Positions 7,361 to 9,811 of a stretch of DNA of 49,761 nt are shown here, in pieces. A model generated the notes under the pieces. The model saw nothing but the letters and a program-made list of their open reading frames with translations, made no database searches and was not told the DNA's origin. The position numbers and the translations under genes were made by a program. Within the stretch, counting starts at the first letter, position 1; each line of letters opens with the position of its first letter. The DNA lies in sequence record SRR22947725_1597; one strand, given 5' to 3'.

Positions 7361-9811
7361 TTATTTCAGCAACATCAGCAAATTTGATTTGCTAAGTTGC
7401 GCCCCTGACAATATATGCTTGCTAGCTTCGGATAAAATCATTGATTTAGTCAATTTTGCCATTTCTGTTGAAAAATCAGTATCCATAATGCGGCCAATCG
7501 CGGCTTCAGTCATCACTGACTGGTTACTCAGGTTACTAATCGATGCACTCAATCTGTTTTGCAATGCGCCCATCAAAGCGAGCTGGTTTGAAATTGTCTC
7601 CAAAACGCTATCGGTTAGAGCAATTGCAGCAGCAGCCCCAGCCTGCGTCGATACATCAGCACTTGCGAGCGTTCCAGAACTTGAGCTTGAGCTTGAACCG
7701 CTGTAAGGAGATCCGCTACCTGAAGCGCCTTGGGCGCCAGTATTTGTCGGTGTTGTAGTGGCGGTGACAATTGGCCAGGTTGATAAATCGATCGTTTGGT
7801 CAGTAAATTCTAAATATTCGACATTGGTAATTGTGTCGGTGCCATCCGCCCCAGCACCACCATTGTGCGCCACAGTGTAGGTGCCCCCGCTTTCAGTAAT
7901 GGTGTAATTCGCATAAATGTCATTATAGACAGCGACATCTTCGGTGCCGGCCCCACCATCAATTATATCATCACCCCCATTTGCTTCTATCAAATCATCA
8001 CCAGCGCCGCCGGCGATATTGTTAGCGCTGCTGTTGCCGGTAATGGTGTCATTAGCACTTCCACCAATGGCATTTTCGATCACCGCGTTATGAGCAATAC
8101 CCATATTATATTCACCGGTATAGAGCGCCGTGCGGGAATGGGCTGAATAGTATGAGTTTGCCGCCGATGCCTGGGCATCAAAAAAATCAATGACCGTTTG
8201 AATGGCTTCGGTGGTTGTCCCTAAGCTTGTAGCCCAATCTGTTTTCTGGTCAGCTTCACTATATATACCGATCGATGAAAATCCACCGGCAGTCAGGTCG
8301 ATGACATTCTCTCTTGTTTGGTTGCTTGCATCGATAGTGTCGGTGCCGCCAGCATCAACAATGGTTTGGATCGTCTCCGGTGATACCGCAAAGCTGTAGG
8401 TGTTATTGCCTGTGTCATCATCATCAGAACCATAGAATTGTTCCATTATTTCAACATCATACATCATTGGCGTTGAAGCATAAATGCGATAGCTCGGGGT
8501 GGTCTGGCCGCTACCATTAAATTTAAGCACCATGTTCTGATCAAGCTGTACATAACCCATGACCGAGTTACGCATCGAGTCCTGGGCCAAAGGCAAGCTG
8601 TCATCACCATTGGATTGATCGTCACCGGCATCAAACGGGTGGCTGAGGCCAACTGCATGGCCAATTTCATGCAGGGCCGCAAAATAATTGAAACCACCAG
8701 AACCGACACCGTCAGTGCTGAAATCATTGCCGGTGATGTCGATGTCTTCTGTCTCAAACCAAATATCGCCATTAACCGCATAATCCCCTGGCGCATAGGC
8801 AAAAGCCGCCGCTCCACTAGACTGATCGGTAAATGCAACACGAAATTCACCAACTTCACCGGCGTCTTCTTCAACTTCGACAAATTCAAAATCTACGGTC
8901 ACATCCCAAGCATCGAAAGCGGCGCTGAGCGTTGTCTCATTCGTCGCCCCATGCGAAACCACCGATGATGGGGTTCCCGGCGTTGGATTGCTTCCATTAT
9001 AAGGACTAGCATAGGCTACGTCGCCATCATAAAATGAATAGGTCAACGTGGCATCGCCTGTTACATCCCACTGAGAACTCATCCGCAACGGTTCAAGCCG
9101 TGCGTTTGTAGTGTCCGTTGTCGTTTTTCCATCAATATCACTCACCGATCCCGAGCTATTGTCATTTGCATCCAACGCATAGGCCGGCTGTTCATTTCCA
9201 GACGGGGCGGCGCTGTTTTCCTGTTGAGCTAAAGCGATGCAATGCGGACATGTATTTTCGTTGTGGAGTGTTTCAAAAACCTTGGAAAAATTGACCTCGA
9301 TGGCAGCTATCTGACCGATTACGTCAGATCCGACTTCATCATTTGCATAGACGTTTATTATTTCATTTTGTGCATTTTCTCCTAAATTTGGATTAACGAG
9401 AGCGGCAAGATTAAGATCGTTACTATGAAACAATGTCCCAACAAAACGGGAGAGCTGATCTTCACGGTCTGCTAATTCTTCAACCAATGCGGCATGTGCC
9501 ACAGTCTCTGACCGGTCAGAGGCCGCCAGCTGATCAACAACGTCTTGAACATTTTGGATATGAGTGTTTAGTGAGCTAAGATGCTGTTGTTTCACGGTAA
9601 CTACCGAATAAGCAAGGGTCTGATCATGCAGTTTGTCTTTCAAAAGCAAGGTGCCGTATTCAGCACCGGATAAGTCAAGCGAAGAAACGGCTTGAGACAA
9701 AATTTCGGATGTAGAATTTGGTGACACGGATTGCGTATTTTCCGCACCAGTCTGAAGATTTATTTGCGTGCGCAAGGCGCCCGCGAATTGTGTTACGCTT
9801 GAAATTGACAA
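7361..9811 (-). CDS. Flagellin-like protein carrying a serralysin-type (M10B-like) zinc metalloprotease and RTX Ca-binding repeats
   Basis: HEIGHAVGLSH (8639-8671), Met-turn SVMGY, AAAFAYAPG, TPMMYD, DAGGTDTIDAS, IENAIGGSANDTITGN, GGAGDD/GGAGTED. C-terminal flagellin domain GALQNRL...GRIMDTDFSTEMAKLTKSMIL. N-terminus helical but degenerate. Confidence 0.88.
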   Translation of the reverse strand: MSISSVTQFAGALRTQINLQTGAENTQSVSPNSTSEILSQAVSSLDLSGAEYGTLLLKDKLHDQTLAYSVVTVKQQHLSSLNTHIQNVQDVVDQLAASDRSETVAHAALVEELADREDQLSRFVGTLFHSNDLNLAALVNPNLGENAQNEIINVYANDEVGSDVIGQIAAIEVNFSKVFETLHNENTCPHCIALAQQENSAAPSGNEQPAYALDANDNSSGSVSDIDGKTTTDTTNARLEPLRMSSQWDVTGDATLTYSFYDGDVAYASPYNGSNPTPGTPSSVVSHGATNETTLSAAFDAWDVTVDFEFVEVEEDAGEVGEFRVAFTDQSSGAAAFAYAPGDYAVNGDIWFETEDIDITGNDFSTDGVGSGGFNYFAALHEIGHAVGLSHPFDAGDDQSNGDDSLPLAQDSMRNSVMGYVQLDQNMVLKFNGSGQTTPSYRIYASTPMMYDVEIMEQFYGSDDDDTGNNTYSFAVSPETIQTIVDAGGTDTIDASNQTRENVIDLTAGGFSSIGIYSEADQKTDWATSLGTTTEAIQTVIDFFDAQASAANSYYSAHSRTALYTGEYNMGIAHNAVIENAIGGSANDTITGNSSANNIAGGAGDDLIEANGGDDIIDGGAGTEDVAVYNDIYANYTITESGGTYTVAHNGGAGADGTDTITNVEYLEFTDQTIDLSTWPIVTATTTPTNTGAQGASGSGSPYSGSSSSSSSGTLASADVSTQAGAAAAIALTDSVLETISNQLALMGALQNRLSASISNLSNQSVMTEAAIGRIMDTDFSTEMAKLTKSMILSEASKHILSGAQLSKSNLLMLLK

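Follow-up and report, generated by a model that had tools for sequence, protein, structure and literature searches.

The window studied here, the whole 49,761-nucleotide stretch of DNA SRR22947725_1597, contains on its minus strand an open reading frame (7361..9811, 816 residues, TTG start) for a serralysin-type protease with the C-terminus of a flagellin. According to sequence comparison, the gene product would be a zinc protease of the serralysin type (an M10-like metzincin), competent in catalysis and equipped with a calcium-binding repeats-in-toxin (RTX) beta-roll; it would have joined the export system of the flagellin gene family. The flagellin-derived protease would be exported by the flagellar apparatus, would probably not be a regular subunit of the filament and would have arisen independently of the flagellinolysins. 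A probability of roughly 0.5 is assigned to this reading as a whole.

Four domains of the 816-residue protein passed the curated Pfam cut-offs, namely Peptidase_M10 (residues 290-394, 32.3 bits, cut-off 24), Peptidase_M10_C (467-515, 28.1 bits, cut-off 20.7), HemolysinCabind (591-622, 23.9 bits, cut-off 23) and Flagellin_C (731-815, E 2.2e-15, 57.2 bits, cut-off 23). The combination of Peptidase_M10, HemolysinCabind and Flagellin_C that the original prediction had proposed for an architecture search was thus found in one reading frame. An AlphaFold2 model was calculated with an alignment of 71 homologues as input and reached a mean predicted local distance difference test (pLDDT) score of 73.4 and a predicted template modelling score of 0.69. 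On the basis of the model and a profile search, an N-terminal family-specific module was delimited at residues 1-185 (9257..9811, minus strand, as for all parts of the gene). It is followed by a linker, by the metzincin catalytic domain at residues ~228-460 (8432..9130; Pfam, NCBIfam, PDB sequences and Foldseek), by the serralysin C-terminal beta-roll domain at residues 461-675 (7787..8431; Peptidase_M10_C and the secondary structure of the model), by a second linker and by the flagellin C-terminal D1/D0 region at residues 717-816 (7364..7663; Pfam, hhalign and PDB flagellins). Between the preceding in-frame stop and the TTG codon there is no other start, and the TTG is supported because homologues span 98-100% of the length from residue 1.

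The second linker (residues 676-716, 7664..7786) is a low-complexity segment rich in Thr, Ser and Gly, with pLDDT values below 50 for residues 691-718. Contigs of other runs carry in-frame insertions of three nucleotides (CTG or CCA on the plus strand) in its poly-Ser part at window positions 7697-7700, a strain-level length polymorphism by which the frame is kept.

Two sets of relatives were used to assess the active site. One consists of the 71 aligned homologues. The other was obtained with a profile of the N-terminal module, which found 118 representatives (50%-identity level) at E ≤0.001 among 1.84 billion proteins; the 48 matches with at least 650 residues and the window protein make up a set of 49 representatives, while 69 matches below 650 residues (fragments) and P0122 were left out. 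The latter (2,487 residues with 39 short repeated stretches) was dropped as a likely spurious coiled-coil match. The zinc-binding and catalytic motif HEIGHAVGLSH, which had been placed at 8639-8671, lies exactly there and corresponds to residues 381-391. The full HExxHxxGxxH motif occurs in 71 of 71 homologues, and the zinc site is kept in all 49 representatives, in which H381, E382, H385 and H391 are invariant. The Met-turn with the serralysin Tyr, SVMGY, was likewise present as had been claimed (residues 416-420, 8552..8566) and aligns to SVMSY of the serralysin 1g9k; M418 and Y420 are invariant in both sets (71/71 and 49/49). The invariance of the zinc and catalytic residues together with the Met-turn Tyr argues for an active enzyme under selection.

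A search of PDB sequences found serralysin 1g9k with an E-value of 1.1e-23 over residues 247-515 and 569-628, and AprA and PrtC were also among the matches. The E-values of the enzyme part against solved serralysin structures ranged from 1e-23 to 1e-17. In a Foldseek search with the AlphaFold2 model, the 25 best matches were all chains of the serralysin family (E 8.6e-20 to 4.1e-16, probability 1.0), with alignments of 474-531 columns to whole serralysin chains. The alignment to 1g9k is interrupted between residues 515 and 569, and the beta-roll domain carries a helical insertion of ~50 residues (helix 519-550) relative to the solved serralysins. The NCBIfam model Zn_serralysin matched residues 219-515 with an E-value of 1.6e-38. 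With a His as third zinc ligand in HExxHxxGxxH, a Met-turn with its Tyr and a predicted serralysin fold, the protease can be regarded as a serralysin-type metzincin. The distal Glu by which gluzincin-type HExxH enzymes are recognised in PMC5595980 and PMC7643111 was not found, as the third ligand is His.

The RTX calcium-binding nonapeptide repeats, originally placed at about 7925-8070, run from residue 583 to 627 (7931..8065). Within this range, the motif scan detected GGxGxD-type nonapeptides at residues 583-618, and one more was detected at residue 651.

The C-terminus was described in the original prediction as a well-conserved flagellin D1/D0 domain that replaces the usual serralysin C-terminus, and this was borne out by Pfam and by further comparisons. 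An hhalign comparison with six flagellin or FlgL C-termini of the window gave a probability of 99.8% at 40% identity. Over the last 100 residues, the identity of the protein is 52% to 272b and 49% to 272c, both of them among the window's three 272-residue flagellins. Over the same length, 272b is 50% identical to 272a, and the C-terminus of the giant flagellin shares just 28-38% identity with any other flagellin compared. Judged by these values, the C-terminus of the protease lies within the identity range of real flagellins to one another. In the PDB sequence search, flagellins such as 9n8g were matched over residues 712-813 (E 6.7e-15), and about 20 NCBIfam flagellin models matched, restricted to the last 100-130 residues. 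The AlphaFold2 model shows this region as a single long unpacked helix (pLDDT ~45) that does not lie against the N-terminal module. A predicted complex of the module (residues 1-185) with the C-terminal region (700-816) had a score of 0.29 (mark 0.34) and bears neither on export without assembly nor on a role in the filament.

No match to Flagellin_N was obtained for the protein at E ≤0.01 in Pfam or at E ≤0.1 in NCBIfam, a point that is absent from the original prediction. The 350-nucleotide intergenic stretch upstream of the gene contains no open reading frame able to supply this domain. The module found in its place is predicted to be a mixed alpha/beta fold with helices at residues 3-16 and 34-43, a beta-hairpin at 54-72, a helical hairpin at 75-127 and three strands between 135 and 172. 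In the full model its pLDDT is mostly 70-91 and falls to 41 within residues 21-30; the module folded alone reaches 68. No significant match was found for it in a Pfam domain search of 11 members or in a profile search of PDB sequences, and the lone model had no Foldseek match in the PDB at E ≤0.001. A wide fold search with VIA-align gave a best Z of 6.5, and all of its matches were generic helical hairpins. These fold searches give no fold assignment and would speak neither for nor against a kinship with flagellin D1. An hhalign comparison of the module with the N-termini of the window's flagellins reached a probability of 57.6%.

Between the module and the catalytic domain lies a low-confidence linker (residues 186-222, 9146..9256, pLDDT <50) with a CxxC motif. 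C188 and C191 are the sole cysteines of the protein and stand just past H183. The CxxC motif occurs in 70 of the 71 aligned homologues, and E172, H183, C188 and C191 are each conserved in at least 90% of the 49 representatives. The segment E...H....CxxC upstream of the catalytic domain may, speculatively, be a candidate metal site or a latency element resembling a cysteine switch. The latter analogy comes from the pro-domains of matrix metalloproteinases.

The gene belongs to a family of its own. Among the 120 best homologues listed from a collection of 5.8 billion proteins, 110 combine an M10-type domain with Flagellin_C. They are nearly all metagenomic, and the few named ones are called 'flagellin' or 'flagellin-like hook-associated protein FlgL'. 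The family comprises more than 100 clusters at 90% identity, and full-length copies were found on five further metagenome contigs (L080-L084). A 7,650-nucleotide contig from another marine run spans positions 7000-9739 with nine differences. The gene is consequently not a misassembly, for which a check had been recommended: the architecture is shared by the 110 homologues, and the contig from the other run covers the region. An assembly chimera or a pseudogene is virtually ruled out by these homologues, which come from independent contigs, by the copies on L080-L084 and by the 7,650-nucleotide contig, and the open reading frame and the intact catalytic residues speak against it as well.

At least half of the sampled words of the stretch were found in 13 runs, all labelled marine, seawater, aquatic or estuary except X1, which has a coded label. 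Members of the family are frequent in metagenomes from marine and fresh water. In two metatranscriptome libraries of one study, contigs account for 27 and 26, respectively, of the 30 bins along the stretch. These contigs end upstream of the start codon, none beyond position 9946, while the DNA runs continue, which is a weak hint at transcription of the protease gene. A generic serralysin/RTX motif scan of genome contigs, followed by family hidden Markov models (HMMs), yielded at least 79 loci; those listed have at most 35% identity over the enzyme, and none of them has the N-terminal module or a linked flagellin C-terminus. This has no bearing on the absence of the family from species genomes.

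Within the 49 representatives, Pfam detected Peptidase_M10_C in 45, Peptidase_M10 in 44 and the RTX repeat in 41. The flagellin C-terminus was found in 23 with Pfam Flagellin_C and in 28 with a family-specific C-terminal HMM. In 18 of the 46 apparently complete representatives, the detectable flagellin C-terminus is gone and the protease is kept. Some members carry a canonical Flagellin_N of ~170 residues ahead of the whole N-terminal module. This was seen in P0096, P0128 and P0204 and in close relatives such as P0097 and P0104 (1,011-1,025 residues), so that the first residues of the window protein correspond to an internal segment there. P0096 and P0204 keep the flagellin C-terminus, and P0128 (788 residues) ends before any C-terminal region. 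The Flagellin_N matches of P0096, P0097, P0104, P0107, P0128 and P0204 have E-values of 1e-37 to 1e-58, and the complete proteins among them have ~960-1,025 residues and continue through module, protease and RTX part to a flagellin C-terminus. These six are the best candidates for real serralysin-decorated filaments.

Two trees were calculated. The first contained the 71 members and six ordinary serralysin-like outgroups, and the members formed one clade with a Shimodaira-Hasegawa-like approximate likelihood ratio test (SH-aLRT) support of 97. Members with Flagellin_N grouped tightly in one clade (100) within a basal polytomy. The second tree, a quick search with the 49 representatives and four outgroups, holds members with a flagellin C-terminus both in basal lineages and in the crown. 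As such members are basal, the family seems to have had a flagellin C-terminus from the start. Members in which none is detectable are scattered over the second tree and require 10 changes, at least seven of them forced by well-supported branches. Members with Flagellin_N are nested near the clade of the window protein (support 84-93). The simplest reading is a single origin of the fusion of N-terminal module, M10 domain, RTX part and flagellin C-terminus, with subsequent repeated decay of the C-terminus and late addition of the canonical N-terminus in one or two lineages, though rooting and support leave this whole reading tentative.

The surroundings of the gene are purely flagellar, with FliS and FliD and six flagellins. 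The window begins with a gene for a sigma-54 activator (14-1054), followed by the flagellin export chaperone FliS (1399..1800, minus strand; Pfam FliS, E 6.9e-21), 5.6 kb from the protease gene, and by a giant flagellin of 1,617 residues with Flagellin_N, Flagellin_C and cadherin-like repeats (2266-7119, minus strand). Beyond the protease gene lie a divergent gene for an 877-residue protein (10162-12795, plus strand) and a gene for a CLC-type chloride channel with a CBS domain (12809-14593, minus strand), which stands between the flagellin-like genes and fliD. FliD and three 272-residue flagellins are followed by an island resembling those for flagellin glycosylation (20024-36054) with Maf/MptE-like, TPR-GT9, GT2 and GT4, pyruvyl transferase and dTDP-rhamnose genes. 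The Ser/Thr-rich linker of the protease (residues 676-716) could be a target of glycosylation, which is speculation. The remaining genes encode a 682-residue flagellin, FlgL, an unusually large FlgK of 1,727 residues (41693-46876, minus strand) with FlgK_D1, rod-type termini and a Flagellin_IN motif, as well as FlgI, FlgH and FlgG. Neither type I secretion genes nor a serralysin inhibitor were found among the Pfam-scanned open reading frames of at least 120 residues in the 49.8-kb window.

A similar order was found elsewhere. A 77%-identical copy of the protease on contig L082 stands in the same order of flagellins, FliD, CLC, a 909-residue homologue of the 877-residue protein, protease and giant cadherin flagellin. 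On L084, a 41%-identical member of 955 residues adjoins a cadherin flagellin of 2,089 residues and a flagellin of 270 residues. In all three loci with enough flank (the window, L082 and L084), a giant cadherin flagellin therefore adjoins the protease gene. Apart from the one in the window, these giant flagellins lie at 12110-15370 on L082 (plus strand, more than 1,087 residues) and at 5803-12072 on L084 (minus strand). Their middle parts consist of cadherin-like repeats (Pfam Cadherin, E 7e-22 to 2e-29). All three have a canonical Flagellin_N; the one on L082 leaves the contig before its C-terminus, and the other two also have a canonical Flagellin_C. L082 also carries an open reading frame of 573 residues (4650-6371, plus strand) that is like the window's CLC gene in size and place.

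The 877-residue protein had no match in Pfam or NCBIfam. It has a domain of 183 residues in common with the giant flagellin (36% identity, E 4e-22), and the alignment of its C-terminus with those of flagellins is weak (BLASTP E 5e-5, hhalign 43-84%). The protein is kept on L082 (6390-9119, minus strand) with 662 identical positions. By these similarities, it is probably another degenerate flagellin paralogue.

Promoter motifs were also scanned for. The sigma-28 consensus gave 13 matches (12.8 expected), i.e. no signal, and sigma-70 gave six (6.1 expected). With up to two mismatches, 101 sigma-54 matches were counted in the window (68.5 expected), a number reached by none of 100 shuffles. Perfect sigma-54 -24/-12 sites (TGGCAC-N5-TTGC) are located at 9875-9889 (plus strand), 1958-1972, 40305-40319 and 36446-36460 (minus strand); they lie upstream of the 877-residue gene, of fliS and of the 682-residue flagellin gene, and one is within a TPR gene.

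The protein is proposed to leave the cell as follows. The chain has no obvious Sec-type hydrophobic N-terminus, as judged from the sequence. FliS binds the C-terminal region of flagellins specifically. Calcium regulates the folding of serralysins, and RTX domains are unfolded without it. An interaction of FliS with flagellin as export chaperone is described in PMC7248283, and regulated folding of serralysin in PMC4574703. In the window protein, the RTX part would stay unfolded in the low-calcium cytoplasm, and FliS, the presumed partner of its C-terminal region, would hold the flagellin C-terminus and hand the chain to the flagellar type III export gate. The chain would then pass along the hollow flagellum, fold on reaching the calcium and zinc of seawater and act as an extracellular protease. 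From the context of the gene, this would amount to a rerouting of a type I-type enzyme to the flagellar pathway. Release, or holding at low stoichiometry, would be likelier than regular incorporation into the lattice. A released or loosely held protease is favoured because the protein lacks a canonical ND0/ND1, no partner for the C-terminal helix is seen in the model and the flagellin C-terminus has decayed in many lineages. Such a scattered loss (18/46) is not expected for a subunit constrained by a lattice. Secreted flagellin homologues without a role in motility exist, for example FlaC (PMC4863622).

Several observations weigh against this export of a protease that is not a filament subunit. 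The score of the Zn_serralysin match, 133.1 bits, is far under the model cut-off of 500, and the protein can therefore be called homologous to serralysins at the level of domains, without a family-level NCBIfam match. No convincing promoter for the protease gene was found in the sigma-28, sigma-70 and sigma-54 scans: the perfect sigma-54 site at 9875-9889 points at the 877-residue gene and away from the protease gene, and the sole sigma-54 match facing the latter (10065-10079, minus strand) has two mismatches. Flagellin export signals usually sit in the N-terminal region, which is non-canonical here. The other points on this side are shared with the view that the protein is a true proteolytic flagellin, a minor subunit that co-polymerises with the 272-residue flagellins, with the N-terminal module as divergent ND0/ND1 and the protease on the filament surface. 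The C-terminal D1/D0 region is as conserved as in real flagellins, and within it the CD1 columns G748, A749, N752 and L754 (LGAxQNRL-type) are at least 90% conserved in the 71 homologues. Conservation of the whole CD1 seems to exceed what a chaperone tag would need and would fit a polymerisation interface. With larger profiles, hhalign aligned residues 56-122 of the module in register with residues 59-125 of flagellin (78.6%, E 1.7e-5), compared with 0.15% in a control against flagellin C-termini. Three further signals are faint: Pfam Flagellin_N at E 0.051 in one of the 11 module sequences; a flagellin in register as the weakest listed PDB match of the module profile (E 6.2), both sub-significant; and ESM features of residues 1-215, whose nearest clusters contain Flagellin_N in 70% and 41% of their members, with scores (0.87 and 0.85) too low to be more than a lead. 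Each of the four signals is below significance taken singly. Given these signals, the module might still pair with the flagellin C-terminal helices, and its remote descent from flagellin ND1 may be somewhat likelier than not. Those relatives that carry the same insert behind a complete canonical Flagellin_N (among the representatives, P0096, P0128 and P0204) could be genuine subunits of the filament, and the filaments of flagellinolysins are a precedent for enzymes borne on the flagellum (PMC5595980).

A regular place in the filament is nevertheless rather unlikely. Flagellin_N remains under the Pfam and NCBIfam thresholds, the model has a beta-hairpin in the place expected for the ND1a helix and an unpacked helix at the C-terminus, and 18 of 46 complete representatives have no detectable flagellin C-terminus. 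A canonical N-terminus is present in just three of the 49 representatives, and their nested position suggests a secondary fusion. The view keeps some weight because of the conservation of CD1 and CD0, the faint ND1 signal and the full-frame variants. The original prediction had spoken of an independent origin of a proteolytic flagellin. Independence is upheld in that the catalytic domain is a metzincin and unrelated to that of the flagellinolysins, while the status as filament subunit is put in doubt by the missing canonical Flagellin_N, the unpacked C-terminal helix and the loss of the C-terminus in the family.

It was also considered whether the protein is an ordinary serralysin that leaves by a type I system (ATP-binding cassette transporter, membrane fusion protein and TolC) encoded elsewhere, with the flagellin-like C-terminus as type I signal or in another role and the neighbourhood as a matter of co-regulation. 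RTX repeats and an M10_C beta-roll are characteristic of proteins secreted by type I systems, the transporter genes could lie outside the 49.8-kb window, and 18 of 46 family members have degenerate, non-flagellin C-termini. However, no type I genes were found among the scanned open reading frames of the window or the scanned flanks on L082 and L084, a full CD1+CD0 of ~100 residues at flagellin-like conservation is far beyond the need of a type I signal, and the flagellin C-terminus looks ancestral in the quick tree; this route is improbable. The same degree of doubt applies to a function in regulation, in which the protein would be a flagellin mimic that titrates FliS or FliW, or would act on flagellins or the giant flagellin as a processing protease in the course of assembly. 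The giant cadherin-repeat flagellin next to the gene in the window, L082 and L084 would suit such a function, as would the conserved C-terminus of chaperone-binding type. Yet the RTX beta-roll, by established knowledge, points to an extracellular, calcium-rich folding site, the strictly conserved catalytic site argues against a pure decoy, and nothing points to a specific substrate.

Export through the flagellum without regular incorporation into the filament remains the preferred reading, and a wider scheme can be built on it. In a 'half-flagellin' family, the D1/D0 C-terminus would be a portable tag for FliS and type III export, the calcium-folded RTX enzyme its cargo, and the remodelled N-terminus with E/H/CxxC a pro-domain or latency switch; re-addition of the canonical N-terminus in a few lineages would lead to serralysin-decorated filaments. 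This scheme is tentative, with the odds leaning against it. If it is true, the family would represent a second independent route of putting a protease on the flagellar export path.

To our knowledge, the only catalytic family described for enzymatic flagellins is that of the flagellinolysins. A combination of metzincin, RTX repeats and flagellin would show that enzymes were recruited to flagella more than once, in this case from the world of type I secretion. The full-frame, C-terminal-half and decayed forms would constitute a natural experiment on the flagellin parts needed for export and for polymerisation. Calcium-dependent RTX folding may explain the passage through the narrow flagellar channel and might be of use in secretion engineering. 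Given its frequency in aquatic metagenomes, the family may contribute to protein degradation by motile bacteria. The sequences are already in public databases as 'flagellin', and the family appears undescribed. A full-text literature search found no paper on a serralysin- or M10-type flagellin, the rarer domains in Supplementary Table 1 of PMC5595980 being outside its scope. As described in PMC5595980, the survey required a flagellin architecture of N-terminal domain, hypervariable region and C-terminal domain, and it would thus miss the 46 of 49 forms without Flagellin_N. A 2024 survey of flagellin outer domains names a peptidase-M61-like and a 'protease' cluster, and its main text mentions neither M10 nor serralysin (PMC11532411).

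Among the known systems, the serralysins (MEROPS M10B, with Serratia serralysin, Pseudomonas AprA, Erwinia PrtC and psychrophilic alkaline proteases) have the zinc site, the Met-turn with its fifth-ligand Tyr and the fold of catalytic domain and RTX beta-roll in common with the window protein. In contrast to them, the window protein ends in flagellin D1/D0 instead of a type I signal, and it adds the N-terminal module of ~185 residues with CxxC and the insertion of ~50 residues in the beta-roll. No transporter or inhibitor genes are found nearby among the scanned open reading frames of the window, and the family forms its own clade apart from the six outgroups.

The flagellinolysins, FliA(H) of Clostridium haemolyticum and FlaMP of Hylemonella, resemble the window protein as zinc metalloproteases with a flagellin terminus in a flagellar gene setting, and in both cases delivery of the enzyme through the flagellar system is suggested. 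They are described as gluzincins distant from M9 (PMC5595980), are now classed as MEROPS M101 (PMC7643111), and their protease is reported to be inserted into the hypervariable region, flanked by the canonical N and C domains, and to be assembled into active filaments. The window protein differs from them as a metzincin with RTX repeats that, like 46 of the 49 representatives, has no canonical Flagellin_N. The pairing of a metzincin with RTX repeats, as opposed to a gluzincin, indicates an origin independent of the flagellinolysins.

Giant flagellins, too, occur in marine flagellar loci, and the 1,617-residue one lies directly downstream of the protease gene; those described in PMC6248924 are reported to resemble no enzyme domains. 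The N and C termini of giant flagellins remain canonical, also in the window's own copy. The last comparison is with FlaC of the Campylobacterales, which is small and retains both flagellin termini, whereas the window protein is canonical in the C-terminal region only. Like the window protein, FlaC is related to flagellins; the opening of the PMC4863622 abstract describes it as secreted, dispensable for motility and chimeric in its flagellin-like sequence and mentions no enzyme, while the window protein carries a protease of 460 residues. FlaC is the favoured functional model for the window protein.

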